Position numbers and translations under genes: made by a program
In this document: positions 23,331 to 55,820 of the stretch, one piece after another
Position numbering within the stretch: the first letter of the stretch is position 1
Layout: each line of letters starts with the position of its first letter
Notes under the pieces: model-generated
Database searches by the model: none
Told to the model about the DNA's origin: nothing
Seen by the model: only the letters and a program-made list of their open reading frames with translations
Assembly (NCBI GenBank): GCA_036172245.1
Contig: JAYWIR010000034.1
Span: 744,001 to 808,000 of the forward strand
DNA length: 64,000 nt
Source of the DNA: Raillietiella orientalis
Lineage: Eukaryota
Direction of reading: 5' to 3'

Positions 23331-25916
23331 TCACTCCAGCTGCTCCAAGAACGATGGCGCCTTGAAGTACTCGGGGACGGCCTCGTCCAGGCGGGCGATG
23401 ACCTTGTAGATGGACTTCTTCCAGGAGGGCTCCTGATCTTTCCCCGAGGCGATGGCGCTGTAAAACTCCTTGACCGTCTGCTCCATGACAGGGCAGAAGT
23501 GAGGGGGCACCTGCGAGGGAGTGCGTCCGTGAGCCCGCGGATCCGTGAGATCCCCTCCCTACCTCGATGTGGTTGTTGCGGTTGTAGTGCAGGTTGAGGA
23601 CTTTGAAGAGCTCCGAGTCCGCGGTGACGCGCAGGGCCGCCTCCGGCTGCTGCGCGCCCTCCACCACCGCCTGCCGGGCGAACTTCTCGATTTGGATGTA
23701 GTAGAACTCCCTGCGTGGGACGGGGGTGTAAGGGGGTGGGAGAGGAGGGAGAAGTGGACTACTCACCGGAAGTTGGAGAACCATTTGACCAGCTGGGCCG
23801 TGTTGTTCTTGTTGAAGCGGACGTCCGGGAAGTAGGTCTTAAGCACGGAGGAGCTGGGGTAGCGCGTCCAGAAGAACATCAACTTGGCTTTGCGCAGGTG
23901 CATGGGGGTCAGCGTCATGGACGCCTGGGGGCCCCCGTCGTAGGCCGATACCTCTACTCCAGGAGGTGGGTCCGCGTCCGGTTCGCTCTTGAGCCCGGCG
24001 AAGAAGCCGTCGGGGGACTTGCCAGGGGGGCGATGCATCCCGTGGAAGGCCGCGGCGGCGGCGCCGATCCCGTCATCACCCTGGTGAGAGCGGCCCGGGC
24101 GGAAGGCCGGGTAGCGGACAAACAGCTCCGACTGGTGCAGGCTGGGGTTCGGGATGGCGACGCTGGTGGGGAGGGGTCCCGGAAGCAGTCCCGGGGGAGG
24201 GTAGCGGGGCCGGGAGCATTCCTGGTAAGCGGAAGGAGGGGCGACAGGAGAAGCGGCGGCAGGAGAGGGTCCGTGGCAGCTGCGCGAGGGCGCCGCCGCC
24301 GCGGAGGGTCGGCCCGCGACCAGGCAGCTGTGGTAGTCTGCCACCGGGACTGCGTCGCCGCCCCCGTCCGAGAGCCTCCCGCCGCCCAGCCTCTGGACCA
24401 TCCGCGCGTCCGTGACCTTCGCTCGCTTCCTCCGCGGGCTCATCACCAGGCTGAGGGCCTCCCGTTGCTCCGCGTCTGATTCAATTTCTAGACTGGAAGC
24501 GTCCTGGCTGTTGGCGGAGTCGAAGGCGGCATCCCAGCAGTACTTGGCGCTTGACACCGGTGGGGAGTTCGCCGGGACGACGATGCGCCCCCCCTCCGGA
24601 GGAGACGTCCTGCGGATCCGGAAGCCGTTGACTGGGAACCTCTGCAGGGATTGCCTCTCCTCTCCCCGGGCGGCGCCGGGATGGCCGTCCCTGCCGCGGG
24701 CCAGGTAGCGCCCGACGACGGCGTCCACGAGCGACGACAGGGACGCGGCAATCTCCCTCTTCAACGCATCGGCCAGGTCGTCGGCGACCGCGCCCAGGTC
24801 CCTTCGGAAGGCGTCCTCCTCTCGGCGCTTGACATCCGCAGGGGGCATCGGCAGAGACGGCGCTCGCTGCTGCTGCGCCATGATGCGCTGGGCCAGGTTC
24901 AAGAACTGCCGTTCGGTGAGGGCCCCGTGACCATTGCGGGGCACCGAGAAGGGCGGCGTCAGAACGACGCCCCTGTCCTGAGACAGCGGCGTTTTCCGTC
25001 GGGAGAGGTGCTGCTGCTGCTGCTGCTGCTGCCGCCGCCGGTTCAGCCGCCGCCTCTGCCGCCGCTCCTCTTCCTCTTCGCGTTCTTCTTCTTCATCCAC
25101 GTCTTCCTCGTCCTCGTCGCCTTCCTCTTCCCCCGCTTCCTCCCTCTCTTCGTCTTCAACGGGGTCTTCCTCCTCCTCGTCCGCTTGGTCTTCCTCTTCC
25201 TCCAGTTCCTCCTCCTCGTCGTCCATGGCGTCCTCATCCTGGCGCCAGGACTGCCTGGGTAGAAGTCGCCGCTTCCGGCGCCTCTGCTGCTGCTGCTGCT
25301 GTCTCGCGGAGCACATCTCGTCGTACCTCCTCCGCATTTCAAACAACTTTTCTTCCATCATCTTCAGCTGGGATTTGAATTCTCCCTCGTCTAGACGGTG
25401 GACCGGGGGCCGGCGGGCGCCCATGTCGTGCTGGACCGGGAGGTAATGCTTCCTCTTCTTGCAGCCTCCCACGCCCGCTGCCGCCGAGCACATGCTGCTG
25501 ACGATTCCCTCCACGCGCAGCTTCTTGCAGACTTCTTCTTCCGCGCGCGGGGGTTTCTGCAGTTGCTGTTGCTGCTGTGTAGGAGGGAAAGGAGGAGGAG
25601 GAGGAGGAGGAGGGGTGGAAGAGGAAGGAGGGGGCGGAGGGGAAGGAGGAGGTCGCTCTTCGCCTGCGGCGCCTTCTTCCTTGGTTTCTTGCGCCGCCGC
25701 TGCTGCCTCGGCCGCGGACCCTACCTGCGCCCTCTCTTCCACAGCCGTCGCTTCCTCTTTCTTCGCGGGCGCAGGGGATGGGCCACATTGCTCCTCCTCT
25801 TCCTCCTTCTGGACGACCACTGGAGGGAACTTTTTCTTCTCCAGCATCTCCCGGAGGAAGTCGCCGCCGCCTCCCTTCTCGAGTGCGGGCGGTGGCACCT
25901 CACATGCCGTCGCCAT
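23331..25916 (-). CDS. pros: Prospero/Prox homeobox transcription factor, copy A (~825 aa)
   Basis: Exons 25916-23767, 23710-23563, 23510-23331 (GT-AG introns of 56 and 52 nt). Homeo-Prospero domain [100 protein letters not shown]-terminal motifs [39 protein letters not shown]. Start Met inferred; an upstream exon is possible. Confidence 0.96.
25007..25660 (-). repeat. Coding trinucleotide/low-complexity tracts in prospero A (poly-Q, poly-E/D, poly-P)
   Basis: (CTG)n and (GGA)n/(TCC)n runs on + translate to [19 protein letters not shown]... and PPPPPPP. Confidence 0.85.
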
Positions 25917-26145
25917 GGGGGAACGGAGAATGGGGACCGACGGGAAAACCGGGTGGTGCTGGTGGCGGCGGCAGAGGTTGCTGCTCCTGTTGCTCCTCGC
26001 GGGAACCAGGTGGCGCGTGCGCTCGCGGGAGCTCTCCGGACGGCAGACGCGAACCCACCACCACGCGCGCGCAGACTGCCTCCGCGCCCGCTCCTCTCCG
26101 CGATTCATAGCTCGCGGACGGACGCGCCCGGCAACGCCCCGACGG

Positions 26146-26179
26146 GTGACGTCACGCGTCGTCCCGGCCGTCTTATTGG
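26146..26179 (-). promoter_or_regulatory. Putative proximal promoter of prospero A: CCAAT box plus palindromic CRE
   Basis: CCAATAA (26179-26173) followed by CGTGACGTCAC (26156-26146), ~230 nt upstream of the inferred ATG; same arrangement upstream of copy B. Confidence 0.55.
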
Positions 26180-29100
26180 CCGCGAGGGGGTGGGGACGGT
26201 GCCGCCGAGGAGAGGAGGACAAAAGAACGGGGCGCGTGAGCTCGTGCGATCGCGCGCGCGCGCGTCGTCCTCCGTCTCCCGGAGCCTCCCGTGAGCCGCC
26301 GCCTTCCCTCACGAGCAATTTTCCCGCTTCCCGAGGCATGTCCGGGAAAAGCATCTGCCTCTCCCGCGGATGCTGGAGCGCGCTTCCTGGGATCGCGTGA
26401 CGGGGCGACGGCGGCGCGTCTCCGCGGATGCTGGGGCGACGGCGGCGGATGTGCCCTTCTTCCCACCCACCCCTTCCTCGCTCGCTCTCCCCCTCGCGAG
26501 GGGGAGGACCGGAAGTCCGCGCAGGAGGCGGCGACGGCGCTCCCCGTCCCCGCTGCCGCCTCCGCAGCGAGCGGCAAAGGCGAGGGGCTCCGGGGGGTGA
26601 CCCCTCGTCGGCTTCCGGCACGCTCCCTTCCACCGCCTTCGGAACACGGGGCCCCGGAGGCGGCGACGCTCTGGCCGTCGCTCCTTTTTTTCCGGTGGCA
26701 CCGTCTCCCGCTACCGTTCCCGGATGCTGAGGTGCGGTCCCGGCGCCTTTGGAGGCTTCCCTGCCTCCTCCCTCTTTCCTTCTGAGGCAACCCCGGACTC
26801 CGTGCGCGCGCGATCCCTCAACCGCATTCCTGAAGGATGGGGAGGAAGAGGGGAAGGGGGAGCACGTCCTCCTCCAGGATTGGAGTCTCCTCACGCGAGG
26901 GCGTGGGATGAGGGGGGGGGGAGGCACCAACTCATCTCCTCTCCCCTCCCGAGGTTACAGGAATTTCCCCCTCGACGCCCCGGGAATGCGAGGAGAGGAG
27001 CGCGCGCACGTCCCCGGGCGGTGCCTTGAGACGTCCTCCAGAGGAGGGGCGGTGTGTCTCCCTGGGCGGCTGAACAATGGGCAGCGAGGGCAACCCTTTG
27101 GACCCCGACCTCTTTGTTTTCGCGCGCCGCTGTCAGGACGCACCTGGCCAGACGTCTTGAGGAGGGCGGCGACGGCCTCCGCGGGTGACCTTGCGGAATG
27201 ACGCCCGAGGACGAGAGGGGAGGAGGAGGAAGAGGAGAAGGAGGGAGGGGTGGGTTCGGCTGGGGGAAGAAGGAAGAGGAGGAAGCGAAAAAGAGGCGGT
27301 GGAAGGGAAGGGGGGGGAGGGATTGGCTGGGGGAAGAAGGAAGAGGAGGAGGAAGGGAAGAGGAGGCAGGAGGCGCTCGTGTGTCCGAGGACTCTTGGGA
27401 AATGGGGCGGCGGGGTGTGGAGAGAGCCTGAAAGAATGAAGTGAGGAGGGAGGGGGTGACTCGTCATGGTGGGGGTGGGGGGAAGGGTCCCGCTGGTTCC
27501 GCTCTTTCACAACTCGCCGCAGCCTGCAGACCTCCGGCGCGGAACGTCTTCCTCAAACACCGCCGCCAGCTGTGGCCTCGGGGCGCGTGCGCGGCGATCG
27601 ATGAGGCACCGAACGGTCGGACGCACTTCGATCAAGCGGCGGACGGACGCGCGCGCGCTTCGAGGGTGAGGGGCGGGCGGGAAAGAGGAGGAGGAGGAGG
27701 GAGGAGGCTTCCTGCCACCTGCCTCTCGGATCTCCCGCTCTAGCATCCGGGAAACTAGAGGAAGGCTGCAAGGATGTTCCTGCGGTCCTCTCATCCTGGG
27801 GGAAGCCTGTCGGCCAGCCGTGAGGCGACTCCCTTCGTCAGTGAGCTGCCCTCTCAGGGGCACCGAACAGCGTGCAGCCTTTCTCGCTTTTCGGAAGAGG
27901 GTGAAAAAGGGGGGAGGGGAGAGTAGAGGGATCTCTGCGGCTTCATTTTTACTTCCTGAGAAGTCGCAAGGACAAGGCGACAGAAGGGGAATCCCGTGGA
28001 TTTTCATCCGCTCCTCCCCGTTTCGTCGCTACGGCGTAGGATTGGGAGTGGCCGGATCTCCAGTGCCCGCCGTGGAGAGACAGTCGCTCCCAGGATGTAA
28101 GGTTCTCTCCCTTCCCGGAGACGTCTGGGAACTTCCCTCAAGACGCGACCTTTTCGAGATCAGAGACAAGATCAGACCCGGGAGCTCCCCATCGGAAGGA
28201 GGGGTGTTCTGCCGACTCTCCCCTTCCTCCCTCCCTCCCGTTTGCTCCTCGACCCGGCCACACACGCAAGAACTCAAGGAGGGAATCGGAACTTCCGGAA
28301 GACATCGTCGGAAGGGTCAGGGAAGCCGCGGAAGTCGGGCCGGCTCCTCTGCCCCCCGTCTCTTTCCCTGCGGCTCCCAGCTTGCGCGCTCCTGGTGCTC
28401 CCGAGTCAGGGGGGGAAGGAAGGGGTTCCGGGGAGCTGGCGAAGCGCGCAGGGGCATGCACTTTTCTTCCCTCCACTCCTTTTTTGGGAGCGGAGGGGGA
28501 GGGGGATGCGCTCTTCCTGGGCTTGATCGATAGAAGGGGGCCGCGAGTGCGCGCGGGAGTTCTCAGCCGCAGGGCCTTCCTTGAGCAGCGCCGTGTGAGT
28601 CACGCGTCGGCACGCACCCGCACCTCCCCGCTGCCGTTAATCTCTCGGGGAGTATGCATACGCGGCGAGTCCGGGGGGGAAGGGGGGGCGCTTCCCCAGC
28701 TTCTTCCTGCGTCGCATGTCTCGCACGCTGCCACGTTTCCGCCTGGCAGGGGAAGGTCGGCCGGCCCCACGGCCGAGGCACCTCTGTCCCCCCCTTCCCT
28801 CTTTTCTTTCTTCCTGTCTTTCCCGATGCCTCTCTTGCGCCTCTCTCTCGCGCGGCAGTTTCCACGGTGACGGCTGCTGCGAAAGCGTCGGGAACGAAGC
28901 GCACGCGAGCGCCACCTTCTGCGGCCTCCGCGCCCGTGGGAAAGGCCTTCCACGCGGAGTATCCCTCTCCAAGGTCCGCGCTCTGGGAAGCGTGCGGCGA
29001 TGACGACAGGATCCGCGGAACGTTCCCGAAGCAGTTGTTGCGTCCCGCTCCTTTTGTCTCCCGGCGGAGGGATCGGCGGCTCCAGAGGAGAACATCTGAC

Positions 29101-32100
29101 ATCGCAGGTACATCGTCAGGCGGGCACGGCTCCCCGTCGGGCGGAACGGGGGGAATGTGGGTGGAGATCATCTTCGGCGGCGAGGTATGACGCCCGCCCT
29201 ATCGGCACCACGGGGGGAAGGCACGCGATCTTCTCCGGGATCCGGGGGCCGCGCTCCGGATCCCAGAATTTCTCCCCTGGGTGCATCTCAGGCCGGGTTT
29301 GAAAGCCGCCGTCGCCTGGATCACCAGCGTGCTCTTGACAAGATGGACGCGTGGCTGATGAGGAAGGGGGGTGCCATGGGAACAGGGTGAGCGAGCGACG
29401 TACGGGAAGGACCCCTTTTTTTTTCCTCCTTGAGGAAGGTTCTTGGCGGCGTGCATCCCTTCCGATGCTTCGAGAGAGTCGAGTGTCGGGTCCGGCTTGC
29501 GCTGTTCTGAAGGAAGCGGGTAAAGATGTAGGAGACGTTCCCCTGGAAACCAAAACGGATGGGGGAGGGGAAGTTCGCGACCGATCGCAACGCGCGGCAT
29601 TATTGGGACATTACTGTCGTCATTGTGATCGCAGAGTCCTTTGGCCGCCTGACGGGAGGCTGCTCCAGGAGATGCGTTTACTTCAAGCTGTTGCCCTGGC
29701 TACCAGGCTCCGTTGTGCCGCCGAATGCTTGAGACTTCGCCCGTTGCCACGGTTGCGCGCCACGGCTGCAAGCTCACGGGACTCTCCCCATCAGGGAGAA
29801 GCAGCTGGAAAAAAAGGAAAAAAAGCGAGCGCAGTTTTGCACTCAGATAAGCGTCTCCTTGACTACCGGATGCGAATCGCGTGAACTATGGTAGCGCGCG
29901 CGCGAGGGATCACTTGAGCGAGAGCGGGCTTGGGGGGAAAAGGGGTTCTTGGGGGAAAGCCAGAGCGCTCCCTCCGTTGTTCCAAACAGTGGGAAGCGTG
30001 GCGATTATCCTTGCCTTGCTCTGCAAGAAAGAGCGGCATGCAAGAGGGGGGGAAGGGGAGAGGAGGAAATGAGGGGAAGAAGAAGGGAACGGGATCCACT
30101 CTGCCTGCCCTCCGATTGGCAGAGAGACTCACCGGTCGGCTGCTGCCGCCGTCTCGCATCACGACAGCCACCTGAAACTCTGGACCGGGAACCCGGGATG
30201 CAGTAGGGAGAAAGAAATGAGGAGCGAAGGCGAAGCTTCGCGGGGTGACCGCGACCTCCTCCCTTCCAACCCTTCCTCTTCCTCCTCCCCCACTCCACTC
30301 TCTCCCTCGCTCGGAAGGAAAGAAAAAAACAAGAAAAATAAGCAGGAAGATTCTCCTACTCTCCCCTGAAACGGAACCGCTTTCCGCTCGTGTCCCTCAC
30401 GCCGCTCCTGAATGGGGTTCTGGGATCTCCCCTTCCTTCCTTCACGTGCACACCGCCTCTCGGGCTCCACCCCCAGCATGACGCTCTCCGCAGGGAGGCA
30501 GGGGCTCCGCGGCCGATCTGACAGGACCCAAGCACCACCGCGACTCCCGAGGAGGGAGCGCCACTCCTTCAACCGTGCTCCGGGCGAGGACAAGGACGAC
30601 AGATCTTCCACTCGTTCTGGAGAACCCGGGAATATACCGGCGGGACGGGAGAGGCCTTCCTCCTCCCGATCCCCTCTTCGCTCCCTGCAGGTCGCGGAAC
30701 GCAGATCTCGCTACACGTCACGAATGCTCCAGGGAGAGGGTCCGTCTGGGTGGATCCCAAGGTATGCGTGAAGCAAGAGCAGAAGTCCCAATATGCTGGT
30801 TCCTCTTGGAGCTCCCGGCCCCCTTCTGGAAGCCGTAATTACGGGAGAAGGGAAGGCTCGGAGGAAGGTCCCGTGAAAACAACTTGCTTGTTATCACCAG
30901 GGCAAAAGTTTCGGAAGGACTCAGGGGAGGACTGAAGACAGGAGTGGCCCAGCTTCCTTGCTCTCCCACCTACAGGCCGGCAGCAGCGTTCGTCGGACCA
31001 GCAATCGCATCCCGGAACCTCTCATAGACTCCTCTTCCTCCTCCTCGATTTCAAGGTGTTCCAAGGGAAAGAAGAAGCCTGGGAAGAAGGACGAAGTGAA
31101 GGTCGTGTCCAGACGAGATCGCATCCCGGATTGGGACTTAGGAAGCCAGGGAAACGAGGGAACTTGCTAGGAATGGGGGAACGGCAGTAGGGGTAGAGTG
31201 TGGGAAGGGTGCGCGCTGCTACTTACTCGGGGGCAAACGCACCTCCTCCCCCCACTTCCTGACGAAAGAATGGGATGAGGTGCGTTCATTGGGCTCGGGG
31301 CAGCTTCCCCGCGTCCTCTGGATTGACTGCCTCTCCTACCCCCCCCATCTCAGTCTGTGGGAGCCAGGTTAATTTCCTTTCCTGCTCTCGCCCACCCCTT
31401 CCTCCTGGCCCTTTCCCCCTCGCCTACAGGACTCTCCTTGGGTCGGAAATCGTAAAGGAAGCGAACGGGGGGGGGAAGCAAGTGAGACCCCTTGCTCCGG
31501 GTGAAGCTGCTAATTCTGCATGCTTCCAGGCAGGTGGCAGCAGGAGAGACGAGCTGCGGGGGCTCGGCGCTCGGAATGCCGTGGGCTCATGCGGTCAGAG
31601 GAAACCTTCGGAAGGAGACGGACTGGAGGGAGAGGAAGGGGGGAGGAGTCGGAATTCTCACGGCGACAGCGCCGCGGATGGAAGCGAGGGTCTCCATCCC
31701 CACCGCAGTCCTGACGCGGCCCAACGCGTTGACACGGAAGGTGCATCGTTTCGGCGTACCTGACGGAATGGAGAGGGGGTCCACTCGTTTCCATGGCTTA
31801 TCACCAGGAAAACCGGCGGAGTTCAGCCCGCTCGCTGCCCACGAGCTCTCCTGGATGACTTCACGAGCACTTTCTGGATCCGCGCTCTGTTCCACCACCT
31901 ACGGAAGGCAAAAGGGGAGAGGGTCCCATAGTCGTTGTAGCCACTCGAGTAGGCGTGCAGTATCCCGTAGGCCCCTCGAAGGCCGGGAGTCGGTCGCTCC
32001 CGGGCTCCTCTAAAACACGTATAGGTGTACACACACACGCGTACGCGTGCAGCCCTGACTATCGTGGAGCGCTCTTCTCGTACGCCCTCGACGGCGCTTC

Positions 32101-35100
32101 CGACCATTGCCAGGGGAGCTGTCGGCTTACTGGCATCGTTACTGGTCGCATGGCAAGCGAATGGTTACCGCTTGCTGGAGGCGGAAGCGTCGCGTCCGTT
32201 GGCCGGGTGACTTCTGGCTAAATCGCTTCACGGAGGTTTCCTAGGGAACGTACTTCCCAGGCAAAAGCGAGCCAGAGTAGGCGCACCCAACCAGTAAGGG
32301 GAGTGAGGAATGGAGGACACAAAGGGGTGAATGGGTTCCTCCCTACAGGGAGAGCAGCAGTAGCCTTTCCGTTCCTCTTCGCCGTCCGCCGGCGGACCGA
32401 GCGTTTCTCCAGCCCTCTTCCCTCTTCCACCCCCGCTTTCCTTGCGGGCATTCCTCCCTCGGGAAGGTGCGTCCGAGTCGCTCCGGGTAGGATCCGAGAT
32501 GGATTTCCCGGTGACCAGGGGAAGCAAGAAGGAGGGACAGCCTTCTTGGGAGGGCCACACGTGCTCCTCGTGACCCGGCGCAAGGGAGCTCTGCCCTTCA
32601 GCTGCAGGGCGTGAGATGAGCGCCGGGGCTCCTCCTCGCTATCGCGCTCCTCTTTCGAGGTCTCCCCTTTCCCAGAACGCGCGCCGCGGAAGGAAGGGAA
32701 AGGAGGGAGGAAGGAGGGGGAACCAAGGAGAGCGGGCGCAGGAAGGTCCCTCTGAAGCTCACCTGGACCGCCTCCGCGCTTCCCCCGTCTCGAGAGCGTG
32801 ACTCGGGTAGACAGTCGGGTTCGGAGCTACGCCCCTCCCCTTCCGGAGGACTCACTCGCGGAGCTGCTCGAAGATTCCCGGAGGAGCTGGGAATCACTAC
32901 GTCCCTCCGGGAAGACGAGCAGATCCCTTCCCGGGCAACCGAAGTGCCCGAAAACCCTGCGGAAGTCCCCATTCGCTGGGAAACTGCCCTCCCCCCCTCT
33001 CTATCGTTGGGAGACTGCAGGATGTCTTTTTTCCGTGCAGGCAAGAGGGGGAGGGGCATCCCGAGTGCACACCGAGAGCAGGCGGTGCGGGGAAGGTGGG
33101 GTGCACACAGAAGGGTTCTCCTGCGGGAGATCTGAGGGGTGATCTCGGCGGTGGGGCAAGAGATTGGGAGTTCGTCCCGCATCTTCCCCTGCTGGGAGAG
33201 GGGCGGGAAAAGGAATCGCCTACGAAGGCGTTTTGCAGGTCCCTCCCCCCCCCTCGTCCTCGGTAACTCGTGCTCCTCCTCACCGCTCACCCCCCTGGGA
33301 CTCGCCGGTCCCCCACTCGGGCACGGAAGCGGGAGAATAAGGCTAGCGAGTTCCCACGGCACCGGCAGGGGTCGTGGAGCTCGTCCGAGAGGACTGGAAG
33401 ACATGGACGGGGCGGGCCGCCTTTTCCCTGCCTTCCTGAGGGCGGGGGTGGTGGAAGAGGAACGCGCGCCCTCCCCCGAAGCTCCCGGAATCCGAGAGAC
33501 CGAAGGCGCTTCCGGCCGCCATTGTCTTCCCGCGCGTTCCCTCCCCCTCCCCCCTTCCTCCGCGAATACTGCTCGCCGTCCTCGGCGGCGGCGGAGGGGC
33601 GCTGGACCACACGGAGACGATCACAAAAACGCGCCAACCCCTTTTCTGGGAGGAGGAGGGAGGGAGGGGTGGAATCATGAAAAGGGGAGCTCCATCTTCC
33701 CTCACCTGGGAAGGCGCTCTCCGCGCGGGTCCGGCAGCTGCGCGCCGCTTCCCTCTCCGCATTGTCCGCGTCTTCCCGCTGCCGCTTCCGGCGGCAGCTT
33801 CCCGGCAGCAGCGGCAGCAGGAGAGGCCACCGCCGCCGCCTGGGAGGAAGAAGAAGGGGAGGGGCTCCCGCCGGGAACGCGTGCACGCGCTCGAGGGCGG
33901 CAGGGTCGTCGCAAGGAAACAAAAAGGAAGGGGGGAGGGGAAGGCGCGATTTGGCAGACGCCCGGGGCTCTTCCAAGTGGCTGCCGCCGCTACCCTTCCC
34001 TTCCTCCTCCCTCCCCCCTTCCTTCGCTCTCTTTTCCCTCTTCTCGAGCGCGCGTTCCCGCGCCGCCGCACACTTGCGCTCGTGCGCGGGCGCGCGCGCG
34101 ACGCGAGGAGTGGGGAGCGGAGGAGGGGGAGGGGTAGAGGAACCCACCGATCCCATTATCCGTGGCGCTCCTTCGATCTGCTCCGGAAAAAGCCCTCCGG
34201 GCGACAATGAGATGGGAGCGCCTTTCTCCGGACAACAATAAGATAATCACCAGACGATCTGATCAGCATCTGTGCGTCTGCAGCCATCTGCTAATCCCAG
34301 TGATGGAGGAGCTGCCCCGCCGCCTATTCTCGGCGCCCCGCTCTTCCCCCCGCAGTTGATTTAATGCAGCTTTTCATCCCGGCGCGATCCTTTTTTTTTT
34401 TTTTTTCCTCTTTCCTTTATTCGGGACGCAAGGAGGGAGAGGCGGGCGAGGTCTTGCCCGCTCCCGGCGCCGCGCTTCCCGGAGCCTTTCTTTGCGCGCA
34501 CGGTTCCCTTGAGCGCTTTGCATGTGAAAGCGGGGAGCGTGCGGGGCGCGCGTGCAGATGCCGCCGAGGTCCAGGGATGGGGATGCGGGGAGGCGGCGGC
34601 TCCTTCCTTTGAGAGTGGCAGCTCTCTGCGACGGCAGGAAACCGCCGCAGTCCTCCGGTGAACGCGCGCGCTGCCTTCCCGGGGACGCGGTATAGGGCAG
34701 GTAGGCGACAGATGTCCTGTGCCCCCCCCCTCCTTCCATGTCCGCTCGGCCCTTCCCGGAAAGGCAGGGGGAGGGGGGGGGAGCCTAGGAGAGAGGGAAG
34801 CCTAGGCATCTGGAGAGTCGGAGGCGCATCCCCCCCCTTCAGCGTCCCGTGAAGCCGGGACGGTCCCGCCGCCGTCTTCAGGAGATCTTCCGACCGGAAG
34901 CACCCGCGCTTTCCCGGAAGGCTCTCCGCATCCTTCAAGGAGCGCTAGCCCCGAGGGCACGCGAGCGTGTTTACCGCGGAGGAGGTCGGGTTACGGGGTT
35001 TATGGCTGCCGGCAGATGGGCATTTGTTTACCCTTGCCGTGATCGCGGCGTTGCTTCGCAACGGCGGCTCTCCGAAGAGGATGGGTCATTCCCCGCTGCG

Positions 35101-44648: not shown

Positions 44649-44650
<2 letters not shown>

Positions 44651-47600
44651 ACGTGTGTGTCGGGAGGGGGGTGGGGCTACGTGCACATCCCACGACGCGC
44701 CGAAGCAGGAGGCAAAGGAAAGGAAAACGGTGAAAACGCGAGCCAAGGTGGGGTGGGAGATCCTCAGCCCATTATCGATCGATCTCCCCGCGTATCGAAA
44801 GCGGGTTGAACATCCCGGATGACGAATACGGATGACGGCGAGTCTGGGCTTTGAGGGAAGATTCTCCTCTCCTTTTCTCGCGGCGCGGCGGGAAACCCTT
44901 TGGGCGACTGCTGAGGAGCCCTCGAAATGTTGATATTAATTACCGGCGGAACGATCAGAGGAGCATCAGCTGATCGCGGCTCGAACGGAGGATCACGTGA
45001 GTTCCGTGCTTTAAGGCGCGCGCTCGCGCGGCGCGTGTTTTCCTTTCTTCGCGGTTTTCCCCTCCAATTAAAATTCCAACCGGTGGAGAAATTCGATCGG
45101 AAATAAACAGGCGCCGGGGCGAAGACATCCCGTCCCATATGTCGCGTGCATTACCGTTGCGCAACCGACACCGGGCAGTTCTCCGGTCAGGCGGCGGTTA
45201 AGGCGTAGCGCCAAGCAGAAAAACGCAGGTGCTCCGCGCGCGCGCGCAAGCTCGCCGCGCGGACGGCTTCCTAGGAAGCGCCGCCGCCGCCGCCGCCGCC
45301 GAGTCCTCCTCATAACGGAAAGACGTTGCCCGAATGTTCATGTGCGTTATGGGAGGCTGGGTTGTGAGCGACTCCCCGAGGCCGCCGGTGACCATAAGGT
45401 GCGCGCGCTCGAGTCGGAACTCGAGGGGAAGGAGCAACGTACCTTCCCATCTGCCTTCGATCGAGGTGGCTGCGGATGGAGGGGACACCCACCCTCGCTT
45501 GCTGCAGAGCAGGTTCGGACCCGAGGCAGCCAGGAAGGAGAGGGTGTGTTGGTGGGGAGGGGGGGAAGGAAAGTCCTCCCGCTCTTCCTGGGAACCGGCA
45601 GCGGGAGACCGGGAGGTCTTAAAGGAGCCGCCGTCGTTTACCAGTTCCCGGCCGCAGGAGCCCTCTTAACCTTCCAGCGCGCGTGCATCTCGAGAGCGGT
45701 CGCCCACAGCTGATCGCCTGGAGCATCAGAGCGGTGCCTTTCCCCCTCTCTCCGGTCGGTCCTTCCTGCCAGGCGGAGGGGGTGATGGATGCGAGTCGGG
45801 AAGCAACGCCTGGCATCGGGAGGGAGAGAGGGACGAAGGGAAGGAGGGAGAGAGGGGAATACGCGGGAAGAGAAACCGGGAGGAGCGAGGCCCAGGGGAC
45901 TGGCTCACCGGATTCGGGGGAGACTGGACGGTCTCCTCCAGCCGCTCCGGGGCTGCTTTTCGGAAAGAAGACGGGTTCGCTCCAGGGTCGTGGACGAGCA
46001 GTGCAAGGGAAAAAGCAGGACCGCAAGCTCGCAGAGTCCCGAGAGGCGAAGACGAAAGCTGGAGGGGATCCCGAAAGTCATCCTAAACAGATGCGGTCCT
46101 TGGTAATCCCTGGGGAGGCGCTGGTGGTTCCTTCCCCCGATCCTCTCCACGGTGGATGGTGGGTCGCGAGGCCGCGAGGCGGCCGCATGCCCCGTCGGGC
46201 CACGTGGCAGGAAGCGAGAGGGAGGGGAGTCTGCCCTCCGCACCTGAACTTCGGCCGATGAAGTGAAGGGCAAAGAGCCGCCTTTGCTCTAGGGAGGAGC
46301 CAAATGAGGGCAGGTCCGACAATTCTGCACGAGAGGAGCATGTCCGTAAGCTTCCCTGCCTATGAGGATGCTGTTCCCCGAGGGTCCAGGGAGTTCCCTC
46401 CCCCTCATCTTGTCAGGAGACGCTTTTTAGACTGGTCTTTTGATCCCGAAGTTCCTCGGATGAGTCGCACCTTCCCCGTTCGGCGCTTCCAGCATCTTCT
46501 CCCCGTAAGCGCTGGCGCAGCCCTTTCCTTCCGACTGCGGGCATCCCTCCTGACCCCCGCCAAGAAGTGGGACCGTAGCGCGAGTTAGCCTGCTCCCCCT
46601 CCAGCCTAAATACAGGGGCGGAAGAGAGGCATCTGGAACGAGGACCAGATTGGACGACGGAGACCGCGGAGCCGCGTGGACTCCGACGGCCGGCTTCTTC
46701 CGAGGGGCGCAGGGGGGAGGGGGACCTGCGGAGAACCATCGATGGGGAGGCCTGTGGGAAAACCCGGAGTACTCCAGCGGCGACCTCCCTAGAAGCGGGG
46801 GAGACCCACGGGACTTTCTCCGGCCGAGGGAGTCCTTCCGTGGCCCCCGCAGGACTTTCTCCGGCGTTCGCGCGCTGACGACTGCCGCGCGGATGCGACG
46901 CGGCGTGGCGGAGAAACCGCCAAAGCGGGGAGAGCAGCTGGCGAGGCGGCGGCTACGGGATGCCGAAACGAGCGCGCGCGAGAGAGCACGTGCTGCAGGA
47001 GCCAAGGGAACCCGCATCCAGGCTTCTCGACTCTTTGGCCTACTGTTCGTGTCCTGCTCCTTCTCCGGACGCGGAGCGAGGACCTCCCTTTGGGACGAAG
47101 AGGTGCTCGCGACGGGGATGGGGGAGGAGGGCAACGGGGCGAGAGGATACCTACCGGAGACGTGCGCAGGAACTTCAACGGAGCTGCCCAAAAGCATTTC
47201 GCCGGCGACATCACAACGAGATGTCCCACCTTTGCACCCTCAAGGATCGGATGGGATCTCGGAGTGTCGCGAGGGTCGCCATTCTTTCTACCAGAGGCGC
47301 TCTTTGGCGAAGAATGCGTGTCACCAAAGGAGAACTCGAGTACCCCGGGCATTCCCGTTCGTCATATGGTCAAGGAAAGTCCATCGGGACACTGTTTTAG
47401 CTAAGGTGAACCTGCACTCCGATCAAGGTGAGGAGGAAGGATAGTCGTGTAACGGACAAATCTTCATGGTTTGGAGACCTAAGAAGGTATTATCTTCCCT
47501 GAATTATTAATCGCCGAAACCAGAAAAAAAAGAAAAGAAAAGAAAAAGGAGAGAAAAAAAGAAGAGAAACTCAGGCCGCTGGCGAGAACGCGACCCTCGT

Positions 47601-50364
47601 GCGTGGTAAACAAGCGCATGCTCTCCAAAAACTCCTCCACGGTTCCCGTGTTCTTGCCAATCATTCTGTGCATCTCTCGCTGCATCTGAAGCGAACAAGA
47701 CCCTCTTCGAAACGGTGGAAAACCGAATTACTGACTCAATTTGTAAACAGCAAAAGTGGAATCGTTAGAAGGGGCGAAGAACACAGCAGCGCCCTTCCGA
47801 GAACATCGTCCCAATGTATACAGGCACACGTCAGCATAAAAAAAAAAAAAAAGGGAGGGGAGGGGGAAGAACGGCTGCTCAAAGAAGCATCGACGAACAC
47901 GCTTATTCCTACGGATATCGGTTCTCGATCTTCCTGGAACGTATAACGATCGAGATGAGCTCTGCGGAACATTTCCAGTTTCAGAAATCGTATCTGTACC
48001 ATGATAGGTGTGAAGAGAGAAGCTTGCTCTCTCTCCGGGTGGAGTGGGGGGGGGGGAGAGAAAAACAGCGGCAGCATCAATCTCCGTGCATAAATTTTGG
48101 CTGCTGGCAAATTCGTGTTGCATGTGACGACGAAAGTCCTTGGTAGCTGCTAAGGGGTAATGGCCAGAATGAAAACAAACAATTACCTTCAAAGGCACTC
48201 TCGGCGAATGACGTCGAAGATGAATTTCAAAGGCAGGTGACCATTTTTGGTCGTTTACTCGTTATTTTGGCTCGCGACTGCTCGTTTCATTCAGCCCGTA
48301 ACGTATGTTTTCGCCGCGTGACTGCGTCCGGTCCATGCGAACGCCGTGAGCACGACAGCGGATTACTCGGTCTGAGCAAGACTGGTTTCCGAAAGTAGGG
48401 AACGTCCTCGAGCATAAGAAGCAAGACAAGTCGATGCTGCTGCTGCTGCTGCTATCCGACTGCGAAACAGCGCATCGCAAGAAAGTGCAGGGATTTTCCC
48501 CATATTCGTTTCCGTGATGATCGGTTACCACGTTTTCCTGTCCTCATTGCAAATTAGCGGGAATGAAATTACATGCGATCGCAGCGCGTTCTGTTTGTCT
48601 TTTGTGTGTGTGTGTGGGGGGGGGGGAGCGCGCTTTGCTTCTTCAGAGGCAAATCCTGGCACTATAGAACTATTGGAACAATCCGGTGCATTGTTGCGCA
48701 TGCGACGGTTGTCCGTTTCCCACCGCAACCGCTTTTCCTGCAACAATCGAAGCAGCCTATTGGGCTGCTCGCTTTCGGAACTCGTAGAAGGCGCGCGCAA
48801 AGGAAGGGGGGGAGGAGGGGGGGGGAGAAAAAAAGCAAAAAAAAAAACAAGCAACCGGCTAAACAAACGAAATGAGGCAATCAATAAAGCGAAATCGTTA
48901 TGGCGACGAAAGTGAGTGCGGAAAGGACATCTCGGCAATCTGCTCATTTCATAAACGGCTCGACTTGCTCATCTGACTGTCCAGCAGCAAGCTTTTGCAG
49001 AAAGCACGTCTTTCTCTCGACCTACGGGCGGCCGTCGGGGTTTGTCCTGCAGTTTACTCTTGATCTTCCTCCCTGAGAATAGGCAGGATCCTTCCTCTTT
49101 TTTAAGAACTGTTGCTCGTGTTGGTTGAAGGCTGACGGGTAAAGATCGCGTTCCGGGAGTCGTGGCTCCGAAGTCTTCATGCAAACCAGCAAAAACAACA
49201 ACAACAACAACGAAAAGGTTCCTAGGAAAAATAATTCCATGCAGACACAAAAAGAGGAGAGGGACGAATGTGACTGCGGCGAGGAGTTGCTCCAATAAGA
49301 AACTTTCTAGCGAAATGAAGGGGCCATCATTTGTCATCCTGCTAGCTTGTGTACAAAAGTAAATCATCATCTCCGAGATACCTAAAGCACGTCTGCAAAC
49401 TCATCAGATAAAACCATCTCTTCTCTAATGGCGTGCTCCAGAAGCCTCCTATTATGGGAGAACATTGTGATGATAATAGCGAAGATCAACCGTATGTTCG
49501 AAAATTTCATCTGTTCCTAAAGTCATCGCGAAGAATGGACCAAAGATGTTCCGAATTTTCATCTGCTCATTGTTAATGAACAATTCACTTTTTCGTCTGC
49601 CCCTTTCCATCTGTCCTTTATTATGCAATAAAGAATTTGAAACGAGGTAACGCTTTCATATATAGAAAATAGTGATTTCCTTCCGCATCCTGGAGGATGC
49701 GAGATCACATCTGGCTTCATGTACTTTTCGGCAGGTGGAGAAGTTTTTCATCTGCGGCGCATCCAGGCGAATCGTTCCTTGCAATCCCACAATGCTGTTC
49801 TCTGATCACGCAGCCGAACAGCTGGCCCAGGATGCGAGGTACAGGCGGTCACTTCCACGCGTCTTCCCACTCGGTTCGCATCCGGGTCGTGCGGAAGGAG
49901 GTGGTAGGAAATTCCAGGGGGAGGGAGAGTTCCCGGCGACGTTCTTCGCTGCCGTTCCCTGCGACGTCGCAAGACTGTCCGAGGATCTCGCACTGCAAAG
50001 TGCACTTGAGTCCTCGAAATGCTTGTTAATTGAACCGGCAGATGCCGCTGACGTCACGTGCCCTCGCAGGCTTTTGTGTATCTCAGAATTAAAAAGTCGT
50101 TCGCTCCTCCCGGGCCTCGAAACGGAGCGAAGGAAGCGGCAGTGTTCTTCTTGAGTAAGCACGCTTTCTTCGTCAGTTAAACTTCCTTTGAATTATCTCG
50201 GTAGTCAGGTGAGGCTAAACAGAGCCAGAAAATTAGAACGCATATAAAGAGATCTTTGGAACGAGCAAAGAAAGGACTGGAGAAAATTGTTATGCGTGAA
50301 AGAAAACCATATGCGCTCTGCTAACGGTCGCCGCGCTATTCAGGAGCGTCGGTTATAACTGCCT

Positions 50365-50369
<5 letters not shown>

Positions 50370-50395
<26 letters not shown>

Positions 50396-50460
50396 GAAAA
50401 GAAAAAGGAGAGAGAGAAAGAGCAGGAGGAGGAGGAGGAGAAGAAGAGAAGAGGAGGGAA
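50370..50460. repeat. Poly-A run followed by a polypurine tract
   Basis: ~26 A's then aaaagaaaaaggagagagag...gaggaggag. Confidence 0.85.
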
Positions 50461-52732
50461 ACACGCGGCTCTCTTCTCTTGAGCATTTTTTTTTTTCTCG
50501 GCAATAAAAATCTCACGAGTTTGTAGGTGAGGCATTTGGATTTCTGTCCTGCATTTTATAAGTGGGAGGAGGCACCTGAATCCAAAAAAACAAGGCGTGT
50601 GCGGTGTGTGCGCACGCGCGCGCGCGACTGCAGCGCAAACCTCCCTCCCTCCTTTGAACTCCTTCGCCCCTACTCCTTACCCATGCCTCTTACCCCTTTC
50701 TCAGACAACGGCGTCTGGGGAAAGAGCATCCTCTCGCTCGAGGAGGAAGGGGGTGGTAGACAAGGGACCATCAGGAAGAGAGAGCGCCGTAAATCTGCCG
50801 ATTCCGCGTTGGTCTCAGGAGAGCAGTCCCTCCGGGTGAGGGAAGAGCTGCTTCTGGGGAGTCCACACCAAGAGAATCTTCTTCGACTGTGTAAGGAGGA
50901 CGCGTCTGGCAGCCCCGAGACTGCGGAGAAGTCGCCCCTGAACTCGCGCAGGAGGGCGTCGGGTGCTTCCGGCACAGAGCGGTGGAGACGCGGACTCCAT
51001 GGACCCCAAGACAGGAAGAGAGAGGGAGAGAGGAAGGGGGGGGGGGAGAGAAAGAATTAGATCCTTCCCGAAAGCGCGCGCGGCATCGTCACGGGAGAGA
51101 CGCCTCCTCTTCGCATCTGCAACGCTCGTGCCCTGATCATTAGCGGGAAGCCATCCGTCAGCCGCCGTTGCCGAAACGACCATTCGACTCTCGCAGACGC
51201 CTTCTTTGTTTGTTTGTTTGTTTGTTTGCCGTCATGGCGGGAACCCCTTCTTCCTGTTGATCGGGGGTTGCCGTGGTAGCGGTAGCACAAGAGACGCCAC
51301 GAAGTGGTTTTTCTCAAGCATCTCTTTATCCCTCTGTGCTGTGATTTGGAAAGGGGGATCTAATCCTCCTCCTCCTCCTCCTCCTCTTCCACCCTATTTC
51401 CAGTCCAGGCGGGGTCGGTTTGTTTGTTGAGGACCTACTTGTGGGGAGTGCGGCAGCGACAGGGGCATCCGCAAGGGAGGGATGGCGCTGGCCTCATCGC
51501 GGAGGGCTGACGAGAAGCGGAAATCAACGCGCCTCTTTCCCTATGGTCTCCAGCATTTCTCCTCGGTCTCTCTCTCCCCCCCCCCCCAATTCCCTCGCGA
51601 CTCGCCTGCTCCCTTTCCTTCTTCTCAAGCCCCGCGCTGTCCCGTGCTCTCCCACGCGACGCGACCTGGGGATTATAGGACCGCAGCGGCCCTTCCGGGA
51701 GCCGCTGGGGTCCATGAAAGCTATCCGCCTGGCGCGCCGCTGCTTCTGCGCCTCTCCCTCTTCGGATGCCGAGGAGCGAAAGTCGGACGTGCCTCCTGGG
51801 AAGGATGGACTGGAGGTGCGCGCGCTCCCGGAAGTCGCGAGGAGATCGGGAACGCTTTAGAGCGGCTCGTCTTTCGGACCGCGACCGGGAGCAGGCGATG
51901 CATCCGCTCGGGCCGCCATCATCTCAGCATCCGGACCTCGTAAAAAAAAGAAAGGAAAGCTTCCCAGGAGGGTTCCCAGGGCAGCCCCCGGTCGAATTCC
52001 TGGTAGGGACCGTGGGCCTGCAATAGGCCGAGGAACCACTATAAGATGGGTCAGAGGAAGGGAAGGGCTGGTCCCTTCAGCCAGCCGGAGGAGGGCAGGG
52101 AGACGAGGAGTCAGCGGCGGCGGCTTCCGGGATCAGGCCGGGAAGGAAGTCCTGAGCGGAGGCGACCAGACATCGGCGACCTCTCTGGAAGGGCTAAGTT
52201 TTCAACTAGCAATAATCGTGGCTCAGTCGCCTTCCTCGCCTACGATACTGCCCGTGCGCAAGGGCGAAGGGCGAAGTGGGTGGGACGTCGGAGTTGCTTC
52301 TTTCCCTGTGGGCGCGGCTTTCTGAAGACGGCCTCCCGGTGCTGAGGGAATGATGGGGCAGCGCGCTGCCGCCTCCGCGGTTGGGACGAAAGCGGGAGGC
52401 GTAGAAGGTGCTGAAGGGTGAACGGCAGCAGCAACTGTGCGCGCGCGAGGAGTCGCTGTGGGGTCTTGACCAGGGTCGAGAGTCTCCTGCGGAAGGGAAG
52501 AGCCGGGAGTGCTGCTTTGGCACCGCCCCGTGCCGGAGCTTCGGCGACGCCATGCTGGAAGAACCTCGTCGTCCATCCTTAGGGAACAGAAAGGGTCCAC
52601 CCCAACCTCCCCTCCCTCCTTCCCGCAACCCTGCCTCGCTCCTTTCCTCATAGACAAGGAGGAAGGGGAACGCGGGACCCTAGGGCGCGCGCGACCCAGA
52701 AGCACCTCGTGGAGGTCGCAGGTGTTGCTTTT

Positions 52733-52738
52733 TTTATT
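52733..52738 (-). terminator. Candidate poly(A) signal of prospero B
   Basis: AATAAA on the minus strand ~650 nt past the stop codon in otherwise GC-rich DNA. Confidence 0.5.
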
Positions 52739-53388
52739 CGACAAGAATCTTCGCTTCGCTGGAGATCGGCGCCACTCACGGGGATGACAACTGGGAGTGC
52801 GTATGCGTGTGTGCGTGCGTGTGGGGGGGGGGGGAAGGAGAGGGGAGGGGGAAGAGGGGGATCGAGGGCAACGGGAAGGGAGGGTTGTGGGAAGGAGGGG
52901 AACGGATGCGCACGCGTGTCGTTTTTGCGTCCCACGTGCGTGCGACGCGCTTTCGAGGTTCCTCTGCTCGCTCTCAGGAACCGTGAGAGAGGGCGTCTTC
53001 CACTTACTTTTCCTCCCCATTCCCTTCTCTTGGGGTGTGGGAAGAGAGCGCAGGGAAGGGAGGGGTGGAGAGAGGTTGACTAGTTGCTGGTGGTCATTCT
53101 TCAGGCGGCACGGACTGGCGCTCTTCGTCCGTGCCCTTTCTTCTCTCTTCCTTCTTCCTGAGTGTCCTCCGGCGCTTGACCAGGAGGGCTTCAACCGCCA
53201 GGGATGTCTCGTTCCAAGAGGGGGAGACGTCAGTCCACGCTCTGCTGGTCTTTCCCGAATCTCTCGGCATTCAGGAACGTCGCCGATCGTCCGATCGGGT
53301 GTCTCGTCTCGAACGCAGGGGGAAAAGGAAGGAGGGGGGAAAGTAGGCAGGGAAAGGTCGGGCCCCTCCTGGGGGTGGACCCAACACT

Positions 53389-55820
53389 TCACTCCGCCTC
53401 GTCCAGGAACGACTTGCTCTGGAAGTAGTCGGGAATGCTCTCGTCGGAGCGGGCGATGATCTTGTAGATGGACTTCTTCCAGGAAGGCTCCCGGTCCTTC
53501 TTCTCGAAGATGACGTGGAAGAACTCCTTCACCGTCTGCTCGACGACCCGGCGGAAGCTCTCGGGAGGCTGGAGGAGAGCAAGGGGAGGGGGGTAAACGG
53601 GCGCCAGCGGGGAGACAAGCGAGGGGTGGGGGCGACGGGCTTCCCAAGCTGTCCTCCCTTCCCTCCCGCGCGCACGCGTGCCCGCCCTCAGGAGGGCGGT
53701 GGGCTCGCTCACCTGCACGCAGCTGTTCTTGTTGTAGTGGAGAGTCAGCGTGTGGAAGAGGTCCGACCCCTCGGCGACCTGGATCCTGTCCGGGCTCTGG
53801 ACTCCTTCCCCGACGAGCTGGCGGGCGTGCTTCTCAATCTGGATGTAGAAGAACTCCCGGAAGTTGGAGAACCATTTGATCAGTTGGGCGGTGTTGTTCT
53901 TGTCGAAGCGCACATCTGGGAAGAAGGACCTCAGAACCGAGGAGCTGGGATAGCGCGTCCAGAAGAACATCAGCTTGGCCTTGCGCAGGTGGGCAGGAGT
54001 CAGCGCGGAGGAGTGGATCTGGAGTTAAGGAGGAACCGACCAACCGAACGCGCTGCGCGTGCGAGGACTAGACGGGGAGGGACAGAACGGGAGTGGAGTG
54101 AAGGAGGAGAGGGAAGAAGCAGGAAGAGCCCCCTTTTCGCATTAAAGGATATTGATGGCACCGCGTCGTCCTCGAAGAGCCGGTTCCTCTTCCCGTTCCT
54201 GCAGCAAAAAGGATCTCCAGAGATGGCCTGCAGGAAGTCCTTGTTCCCTCGTGGGGATCCTCCGTAGACGGGAGGCGAATGGAGGAATCCTCCCAGGGGC
54301 GATCCGGGTGAGCTGCGGATGAGCCTGGCCGCACCTCCCAGCTTCGGGTATCCGTTGATCGGCTCGTCGAGGACGGCTGGGAGCTGCTGCTGAGTCTGCG
54401 CGTGGGCCGCCAGGGCGGCGCCCTCGACACCAGCCAAGGACATCCGGAAGGGCAGCCCCGACTTGGGCGTCAGCCTCATGTCCGTCACCTTATTGCGTTT
54501 CTTTGGAGTGACGACCAGACTGAGGGCTTCTTCCCTGGGGTCCGCGGCTTGTCCGTCGGAGCCGCTGTCGTAGTTGCTCATCGGACTAAGCTCCGGCGAC
54601 CTCCAGCTGCCGAGACAGCATCCGGCGAAGCCGCCGCCCCCCTGGGGGGAGCCCCGGGGCGTAGCCTGCCTGTCTTCGGCCGGCAACAGCAGGGGCGGCT
54701 GCTGCTGGCGCCGCCTGTCGCAGTAGAAGCCGCCGGCTCCCTCGTCGAAGGCGCGCGCCGCCACGGCAAGGCAGCACCGCCGGCTCGGAGACGGCCTGCC
54801 CTCCGACCTCGGCGCGAAGTCGCCCTCCGAAGAGGGGCGGCGCCGCCGGCGCTTGGGGAGCTCCTCTCCGAGCTCCCGGAAGTACCTCGCGACGGCGGAG
54901 TCGATGAGCTCCGTCAAGGAGGCTGCGATCTCAGTCTTGAGGTATCGGGATAGGCTCCGGAGGTCGCACGCGGCGGTCTCCAGGGAGTCCCTGCGCTCGG
55001 TCTCCTGGAAGATCCTCATGGTTCTGCCGCCACCGTCGCGCGCAGGCGAGGAGGGGGCCGCGGCGGCGGCTTCTCCGTTCTGGTGCAGCCAGATGGCCGC
55101 CGCGGGGTCGGCGCACCCGTCCCCCCCTCCTCCTCCTCCCTTCTTCGGACCCGCTCTCTTGAAGGTGTCGCTCGCAACGCTTCTCCTGCAAGGAGAGCGG
55201 CGGCATCTCGCGTCCTGGGGTGGTAGTCGGTCCGGGGACCGACGGGACCCGGAGTACCTTTTCTTCAGCAGCGAGAGGTGGTCTTCCATCAGCTGCAGTT
55301 GGCTGCGGAAGTACTCGTCGTCGTCCGCCTGCCGCCGCCGCCACTCCTCCTCATCATCATCATCATCGCGCCTCGACGACGCGTCGTGCTGAACGGGCTG
55401 GTAGAGCTTCCTCTTGCGGCACCCCCCCACAGAAGGAGAGCGCGACTGGGGGGCGGCGGCGTCCGGCAGGCGGCGCTCCAGCAGCTGCAGAAGCGCCTCC
55501 TCCCTCTCGGGGCTGCCGCCGGTGGTGTCCTTCGCCTCGGACTTGGCCGCCACCAACTTCTCCGCTCCCGCGTCGTCGTCGCGTTCCTCCTCGACGATGT
55601 GGAGACGAGGGAAGTCGTCGGACCCGGAGTTGTCGCAGTCGTAGGCGGCAGCTCCGCTCTCACCCTCGACAACCCCGCCGCCACAAAGGTGCCGCTTGAC
55701 TTCCTCCTCCTCTTCTTCCTCCTCCCCCTTCCTCGTCCCTCCTCCCTTCTTCAGGTCGTCGTCGGCATCGGCAGACACCTTCGGGTGGCTCCTGGGGACG
55801 CCCGGAGCTTCCTTAAGCAT
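53389..55820 (-). CDS. pros: Prospero/Prox homeobox transcription factor, copy B (~715 aa, more divergent)
   Basis: Exons 55820-54153, 54012-53713, 53568-53389. [89 protein letters not shown]-terminal motifs [38 protein letters not shown]. Start Met inferred from the TATA position. Confidence 0.94.
54013..54152 (-). other. U12-type AT-AC intron (140 nt) in prospero B
   Basis: Donor TCA|ATATCCTTT (54152-54144), branch site TCCTTAAC (54031-54024), acceptor CCAC| (54013). Phase-0 removal restores the frame into the homeodomain. Confidence 0.92.

Follow-up and report, generated by a model that had tools for sequence, protein, structure and literature searches.

Two prospero genes on one strand

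We analysed a window of 64,000 nucleotides (nt), i.e. the whole stretch of Raillietiella orientalis DNA taken from contig JAYWIR010000034.1, and found by a six-frame motif scan together with reading of the sequence that it carries two complete copies of prospero (pros), a gene of nerve-cell fate, here termed copy A and copy B. Both lie on the minus strand with 27.5 kb between them. The first-pass annotation of this DNA had proposed a tandem prospero duplication with two intact same-strand copies about 27 kb apart, which was confirmed here at 27.5 kb and with both reading frames intact, and the two coordinates by which it bounded the pair, 23331 and 55820, proved to be the stop codon of copy A and the ATG of copy B, respectively.

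Copy A (23331-25916, minus strand) encodes 824 amino acids (aa) in three exons (25916-23767, 23710-23563 and 23510-23334), followed by a stop codon at 23333-23331. Its start codon was placed by choice at the Met that precedes the conserved LRE(M/I)L motif by 20 aa, and further Met codons are present upstream, at 26108 and 26354, within the same open reading frame (ORF). Copy B (53389-55820, minus strand) encodes a divergent protein of 715 aa, likewise in three exons (55820-54153, 54012-53713 and 53568-53392) with the stop codon at 53391-53389, and its 5' end is uncertain since the ORF remains open upstream to 56132. The joined frames of both copies were open and ended with the usual ...FL(E/D)xxE terminus.

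Using the curated Pfam cut-off of 25 bits for the homeo-prospero domain (HPD, PF05044), we obtained scores for copy A of 91.6 bits at the end of exon 1 (profile positions 1-50) and 71.5 bits in exon 3 (100-153), and for copy B of 162.1 bits in exon 2 (1-95) and 63.3 bits in exon 3 (100-153). Both genes are thus of the PROS class, having an HPD above the cut-off with its homeodomain and Prospero parts covered. In both cases this domain is found at the C-terminus of a long protein in which the N-terminal blocks CKKRKxYxPxQH, LKxEIxxSL and EALSLVxxPxKRxKVTD are conserved, as checked by aligning A with B and by comparison with the proteins P0101, P0123, P0125 and P0005. For residues 380-688 of copy A, the best identity in the databases was 43% over 76% (Centruroides).

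The spacer between the two genes (25917-53388) covers 27.5 kb of mostly 50-68% GC. A tblastn search with both proteins found no third prospero copy in the window, and none of the spacer ORFs of at least 110 aa had any Pfam domain beyond overlaps with the two genes, in a search that may miss small or intron-rich genes. No DNA similarity was found between the flanks of A and those of B. Being adjacent on one strand, without a recognisable gene intervening, the two copies form a tandem pair.

Intron positions in the two copies and their ancestral state

Intron 1 of copy B (54013-54152, minus strand) is a 140-nt AT-AC intron of the U12 type, in phase 0. The consensus of such introns comprises a 5' splice site /ATATCCTT, a branch site TCCTTAAC located about 10-15 nt from the 3' end, and a terminal AC, and this consensus with its spacing rule agreed with the 22 environmental examples described below. 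All of these elements were present in copy B, with the 5' splice site ATATCCTTT at 54152-54144, the branch site TCCTTAAC at 54031-54024 having its branch A at 54025, 12 nt from the end, and the terminal AC at 54014-54013. The resulting junction 54153/54012 is in frame, in phase 0, two codons before (T/A)LTP(M/A)HL. There were three matches to ATATCCTT in the window and a single one in its GC-rich part, this being the ATATCCTTT of copy B, and the composite pattern ATATCCTT-N(100-130)-TCCTTAAC-N(8-14)-AC had one match in the window versus none in 100 dinucleotide-preserving shuffles. The other two ATATCCTT(T) sites, at 8013-8020 and 10275-10282 of the window on the minus strand, are located in the AT-rich part, the former following an open frame that ends ...GRNEWTKQ|. 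The sites at 8020 and 10282 were rejected as U12 introns after a consensus branch site proved absent from the 1.5 kb downstream of each.

In copy A the coding sequence is contiguous across the corresponding site (23921-23922, minus strand), which lies between a GCG Ala codon and a TCC Ser codon. The loss of the intron from this copy was evidently exact, since the spacing of YDG, seven residues and LTPMHL is the same as in the spliced insect-like proteins P0021 and P0012. What copy A has instead is a 56-nt intron 1 (23711-23766, minus strand; GTGAGT...GCAG) in phase 2 within the Arg codon of WFSNFR|EF, the junction reading CG|GTGAGT...GCAG|G. The same site in copy B (53857-53858, minus strand) falls within CGG; the codons TTC CGG GAG are uninterrupted, NFREFF is contiguous, and the loss of the NFR|EF intron was on that account also exact. 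The last introns, intron 2 of copy A (23511-23562, minus strand; 52 nt, GTAGGG...GCAG, HIE|VP) and intron 2 of copy B (53569-53712, minus strand; 144 nt, GTGAGC...TCCAG, CVQ|PP), occupy the same aligned position, both in phase 0. The intron assignments made in the first-pass annotation were accordingly all reproduced: a copy A lacking the U12 intron and keeping the phase-2 intron, a copy B keeping the U12 intron with its 54153/54012 junction and lacking the NFR|EF intron, and a last phase-0 intron in common. As seen from these genes, introns in the GC-rich block are very short (52-144 nt).

The two structures differ in what they would demand of the splicing machinery. If retained, intron 1 of copy B, its 140 nt not being a multiple of three, would lead to a TGA at 54002-54000, three codons into exon 2 (ORF 56132-54003), so that the DNA-binding domain of copy B needs removal of the U12 intron; we infer that the minor spliceosome is the expected route for this. 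Copy A should require only the major spliceosome, because both of its remaining introns are GT-AG. Inspecting copy B intron 1 by eye, we found no credible nested U2 intron, the only in-frame GT codons being those of GTCCCT, GTCCTC and GTTGGT, and the exon-2 frame runs into a TAA inside the branch site. The intron is thus not a twintron of the insect type, and because there is no in-frame GTRAGT-like donor and a TAA stands in the branch site, no long isoform seems possible. The first-pass view that the ancestor was splice-regulated presumes such an insect twintron and stands as an assumption.

For the ancestral state of the introns, metagenome contigs were scanned with an HPD alignment, whereupon the best 80 of 173 confirmed loci were kept and those with homeodomain exons more than 93% identical were merged into 47 groups. 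Both search patterns lie in the first homeodomain exon, and the sampling should therefore have no bias for or against the downstream intron. Eleven of the 47 groups were contiguous across the domain and thereby uninformative with regard to introns, probably representing transcripts, which left 36 genomic groups. A phase-2 NFR intron at the site used in copy A, with CG|GT or AG|GT right after the Asn-Phe codons, was seen in 31 of these 36, including the very divergent groups L023, L034 and L036 (45-56% identity), and REF was read straight through in the other five (L022/L028, L027, L029, L030 and the L031 group). Both this intron and a U12-type 3' end at the copy B site, two codons before TLTPM, were found in 22 of the 36, where a 3' end was called U12-type if a branch site resembling TCCTTAAC, with two mismatches at the most, stood 10-16 nt before it. 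The 3' ends were AC in 17 groups, AG in four and AA in one, and the homeodomains of these 22 groups were 67-94% identical to P0136. In nine of the 22, ATATCCTT was located 81-1435 nt upstream, right after an open pros exon-1-like peptide (...ACGYDGLAV|, ...SIYDPSMPM|). No convincing upstream 5' motif was found for the remaining 13 within the 128-3018 nt present, 11 having none, L042 having only ATATCCCC, and L071 having only one that overlaps its branch site. Contig L046 displayed, within one gene, an 81-nt AT-AC intron, a 2.7-kb phase-2 NFR|EF intron and the phase-0 last intron. None of the 80 loci was close to either copy, the best HPD identities being 72% to A and 63% to B.

These results of the intron-position mapping that the first-pass annotation had suggested make it very probable that the ancestor of A and B had both introns, as 31 of 36 groups, the 22 groups and L046 show them, and the proposed reciprocal loss is thereby well supported. 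The presence of both introns before the duplication is in this way read from environmental relatives, not from a sister species. In the protein library, genomic ORF fragments that lack the NFR intron and keep the last intron were also found (P0187, P0160, P0234, P0167, P0188 and P0230), the first three of which are deuterostome-like as assigned from residues alone. The three-intron state is consequently typical of arthropod-like homeodomain genes and not of all Bilateria.

Other intron arrangements were seen in the survey. In L075:3001-3183 and L077:3001-3171, the intron before the homeodomain ends with a pyrimidine tract and AG about eight codons upstream, the exon starting with GSHMGTSSTLTPM and GYSLSDACSSTLTPM, respectively; the U12 intron has here, by the look of it, been replaced by one of the U2 type or by a shifted one, with the NFR intron kept. 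L061, L064 and L068 (about 3001-3336; 60% GC) had no intron at the homeodomain start, being coding through ...GSGQQTEILTPT, and had an NFR intron with AG|GTAAGT, which is the intron combination of copy A, found here in a divergent sequence that is unrelated to it (50% identity to P0136). The genomic loci L028, L029 and L030, of the EGLTPHHLKKAK type, had neither the U12 nor the NFR intron and kept the last intron.

That the U12 intron at the start of the homeodomain is ancient, as the first-pass annotation had maintained, agrees with the literature. [quoted passage not shown]

Divergence of the copies and the origin of the pair

The A and B proteins were 39% identical overall (257/653 aligned positions) and 66% identical in the HPD. 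With regard to other proteins, the HPD of copy A was up to 77% identical to that of other arthropod Pros, and that of copy B had copy A as its best match, followed by a next best of 64%. The homeodomain exon of copy B had 586 matches at E <= 0.001 among 1.84 billion representative proteins, and among the 150 best of these that were listed none was more than 67% identical over the length of the exon; two partial matches at 81% and 74% resembled ordinary Pros. Neither a B-type orthologue nor a close A-type one is on record in the databases searched, their lineage having gone unsampled there. Nucleotide alignment between the two loci is now limited to two pieces of HPD-coding DNA, and the Nei-Gojobori synonymous divergence (pS) was 0.38-0.77 across all blocks, with a GC content at third codon positions of 0.80 and 0.84. 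Such values in every block point to an old duplication without recent gene conversion. A stretch of 154 nt of the homeodomain with an 85.7% nucleotide match was considered as a trace of recent conversion and rejected, the pS there being 0.41, like elsewhere. For the homeodomain the ratio of nonsynonymous to synonymous divergence (pN/pS) was 0.064/0.414 (0.15), and the recognition helix KWFSNFREF is intact in B, indicating that the homeodomain of this copy is under purifying selection. Copy B had 26 residues that are rare elsewhere versus 11 in copy A, and a terminal branch of 1.1-2.7 versus 0.3-1.2; judged by its divergence, copy B is the derived, fast-evolving gene and copy A the conservative one.

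We consider it probable, on the strength of the gene structures and the survey, that the pair arose through an old tandem duplication followed by reciprocal and exact loss of one intron per copy from a three-intron ancestor. A single prospero gene of an arthropod would have been duplicated locally, head to tail, its HPD region having three introns, i.e. an AT-AC U12 intron two codons before TLTPMHL, a phase-2 intron at NFR|EF and a phase-0 intron preceding the last exon. After the duplication, exact deletions would have removed the U12 intron from A and the NFR|EF intron from B. For copy A, left with GT-AG introns only, the major spliceosome would then suffice, and the mRNA of copy B would encode a DNA-binding domain only after removal of its U12 intron. 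The order of these events, the expression of A as well as B, and any sharing of tasks between the two are what we infer from sequence.

A number of observations weigh against this reading, or against the certainty with which it can be held, several of them concerning the phylogeny. Copies A and B were sisters in two quick HPD trees (SH-aLRT, the SH-like approximate likelihood ratio test, 85 with 130 rows and 81 with 71 rows) and in a quick full-length tree (SH-aLRT 85; 41 rows x 648 columns), where they fell inside an 18-row set (SH-aLRT 97) together with three crustacean and nine insect rows. The careful HPD tree set them apart, with negligible support (7/44), and the approximately unbiased (AU) test with A and B held together gave p 0.5 and a log likelihood 0.58 lower, which neither rejects nor proves their sisterhood. 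The amino-acid composition of A, B and P0125 was deviant, treekit issuing a warning about it as it also did about the long branch of B, so that the grouping in the full-length tree could be an artefact of composition. Four rare residues shared by A and B were likewise discarded as evidence of sisterhood, because B shares four to five with unrelated long-branch rows. The phylogeny of Prox proteins by which the first-pass annotation had meant to date the duplication hence united the two copies in the three quick trees and separated them in the careful one, and the trees are equivocal as to whether A and B are closest relatives, neither establishing nor rejecting it; the strongest argument for a local duplication is their adjacency on the same strand. 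To these points should be added that the term ancestral, as used here, rests on the similarity of environmental contigs to arthropod Pros in sequence, that a 13-residue motif kept in A is absent from B, that the C-terminal Prospero part had a pN/pS of 0.281/0.384 (0.73), which is almost neutral for the pair, that copy B contains an alternative in-frame GT-AG pair (GT 54161, AG 54020-54019), and that the surrounding DNA of 65% GC gives rise to long chance ORFs, such as one of 536 aa at 52226-53833 on the minus strand without any Pfam match. Since long ORFs arise by chance here, an open frame is weak evidence of function.

Some of these points suit the view that copy B is decaying or unexpressed, with its U12 intron a leftover and copy A the single working prospero gene. 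The very long branch of B, its many rare residues, the near-neutral Prospero part, the lost motif and the openness of frames in GC-rich DNA would all fit such a gene. It would, however, have to be reconciled with 715 codons over three exons without a frameshift or a stop, with conserved N-terminal blocks held in one frame, with four splice junctions of which all are consensus, every U12 element included, and with the constrained homeodomain and its intact KWFSNFREF. With synonymous divergence close to saturation, a dead gene as old as this would be expected to look visibly broken, and we find this explanation unlikely. A living copy B could, alternatively, have intron 1 spliced by the major spliceosome between the GT at 54161 and the AG ending at 54019, joining 54162 to 54018, the AT-AC signals being relics. 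That pair preserves the reading frame, its AG is preceded by a tract moderately rich in pyrimidines, and PMC3584512, in what is accessible of it, describes how activation of a cryptic 5' site close by can convert U12 to U2 splicing. The donor GCG|GTGCCA, however, fits GTRAGT at its first three bases only and differs from the three GT-AG donors that the two genes have (GTGAGT, GTAGGG and GTGAGC), and full-consensus U12 elements with an optimal spacing of 12 nt would be unexpected for relics. The AC junction lies at the exact codon used in the 22 environmental groups. Splicing of this kind strikes us as quite improbable.

It may also be asked whether any reciprocal loss took place, as A and B could be ancient paralogues, or the ancestor could have lacked one of the introns with A gaining its NFR|EF intron after the duplication. 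The separation of the copies in the careful HPD tree agrees with this, and so do the sequences of other lineages in which NFREF is read through (P0187, P0160, P0234, P0167, P0188, P0230, L027 and L028-L031), because of which the NFR intron is not universal in Bilateria. Nevertheless, the position and phase (CG|GT) of the NFR intron in A match those of 31 of all 47 groups, very divergent ones included, and a loss in B is much more likely than an independent gain at exactly that site. Ancient paralogy is further countered by the scarcity of relatives of B, as described above for the 150 listed of 586 matches, by the adjacency of the genes on one strand, and by the AU test, which did not reject their grouping. 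We thus hold the case without reciprocal loss to have very little likelihood. That the second copy would be an assembly artefact, either an uncollapsed haplotype or a mis-join, has next to none, considering the 39% protein identity, the differing introns and the flanks without DNA similarity.

Returning to tandem duplication with reciprocal intron loss, a functional split between a copy A independent of the minor spliceosome and a copy B gated by it is plausible, the division by spliceosome type following from the gene structures of the two copies. A further step, subfunctionalisation by spliceosome type, with the ancestral neural role carried by copy A free of the slow and limiting minor spliceosome and the output of copy B set by minor-spliceosome activity, is a speculation that we regard as rather doubtful. 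Were it true, the reason why this U12 intron persists in all insects and vertebrates analysed would become directly testable, and if both copies are expressed, their comparison could test regulation versus inertia as the cause of U12 retention. What the locus offers for this is a conservative pros copy without the near-universal U12 intron, beside a divergent copy having the intron in perfect form.

Genomic surroundings and comparison with known systems

The GC content of the window jumps at about 16000-17500, from 33-40% to a block of about 47 kb with mostly 56-68%, dipping to about 49% at 42-50 kb. Between 17 and 64 kb, no Pfam match was found among ORFs of at least 110 aa besides the two pros genes, and this region contains many chance ORFs of up to 536 aa, some overlapping the real exons in other frames. 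The AT-rich part is one of housekeeping genes and contains the C-terminus of an MCM-binding protein (6441-6845, minus strand), an RRM piece, an ORF with a UQCC2/CBP6 domain (UQCC2; 13353-13700, plus strand) and, overlapped at its start by the latter, a METTL15-like methyltransferase ORF (13673-14734, plus strand). Best matches of the METTL15-like ORF were insects at 47-53% identity, with a stick insect first; a shrimp matched at 50%. Fused UQCC2 and METTL15 gene models in Timema and Clunio (P0285, P0306 and P0307) match the adjacency seen here, reflecting either a conserved tight adjacency or read-through annotation. These neighbours point to an arthropod host, probably of the pancrustaceans or hexapods, for which the databases searched contain no close relative. 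The only small nuclear RNA (snRNA) match in the window was one of the major U4 type at 52151-52265 on the minus strand, about 1.1 kb downstream of the copy B stop codon, scoring 57.9 bits with the full Rfam model (gathering score 46). Its ACAGAGA-independent core AUUGCUAGUUGAAAACU is conserved, but its Sm-site region is GAUGUCUGG; it scores as major U4 and not U4atac, the clan being represented by its best match alone.

The closest known counterpart of the copy B intron is the twintron in intron 2 of Drosophila melanogaster prospero, described in the accessible portions of PMC3291851, PMC3564746 and PMC3584512 as an AT-AC U12 intron with a nested U2 intron that gives an isoform longer by 29 aa. 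Both introns are AT-AC U12 introns at the start of the homeodomain-coding part, and the ATATCCTTT of copy B reads I-S-F in frame. In contrast to the fly, where pros is single-copy and the intron carries the nested U2 intron, there are here two copies, of which A has no intron at all at the site and B has no in-frame GTRAGT-like donor within it. The insect-like protein P0019 carries, in DGLQPT-ISFFNEHNLNINQRNLSLTSVN-SSTLTPMHL, an insert of 22 aa that begins with ISF (corresponding to ATATCCTTT) and contains SLT (corresponding to TCCTTAAC); the protein would seem to be a long isoform in which the two ends of the U12 intron are translated, as happens with the fly twintron. The arthropod-like L046 has three introns at the combined positions of A and B, all in one gene, and retention of its 81-nt U12 intron, lacking an in-frame stop, would add 27 aa, whereas retention of the 140 nt of copy B truncates the product.

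PROX1 and PROX2 of vertebrates are PROS-class paralogues from one ancestral gene, like A and B, but are located on different chromosomes (1q41 and 14q24.3, as given in the accessible text of PMC2211742) and not in tandem. The first homeobox intron of human PROX2 is AT-AA in the same text, and both PROX1 and PROX2, as far as these excerpts describe them, keep the non-GT-AG intron that one of the paralogues has lost here. The deuterostome-like fragments P0187, P0160 and P0234 differ from the ancestor proposed for A and B in reading through NFREF. A tandem PROS-class pair is described for the purple sea urchin, as lineage-specific and very recent (bioRxiv 10.64898/2026.09.25.754218); that pair is from a deuterostome and the available part of the source gives no intron differences for it, unlike A and B, which are old (39% identity) and differ in their introns. 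In spiders and scorpions with whole-genome duplication, Pros was one of only two homeobox classes with a copy number not above that of other arthropods, according to the accessible text of PMC6107062, and several rows named prospero-like were found in the horseshoe crabs Tachypleus tridentatus and Limulus polyphemus. A long-retained tandem pair should therefore be uncommon, as Pros tends to stay single-copy. Our search of a library of papers gave no report of a protostome pros pair, nor of a pros gene without the U12 intron beside a paralogue that keeps it. That duplicated genes go on to lose different introns is by itself familiar, and copies A and B constitute a new and tidy structural case of this process, with the interest residing in the identity of the intron that was lost.

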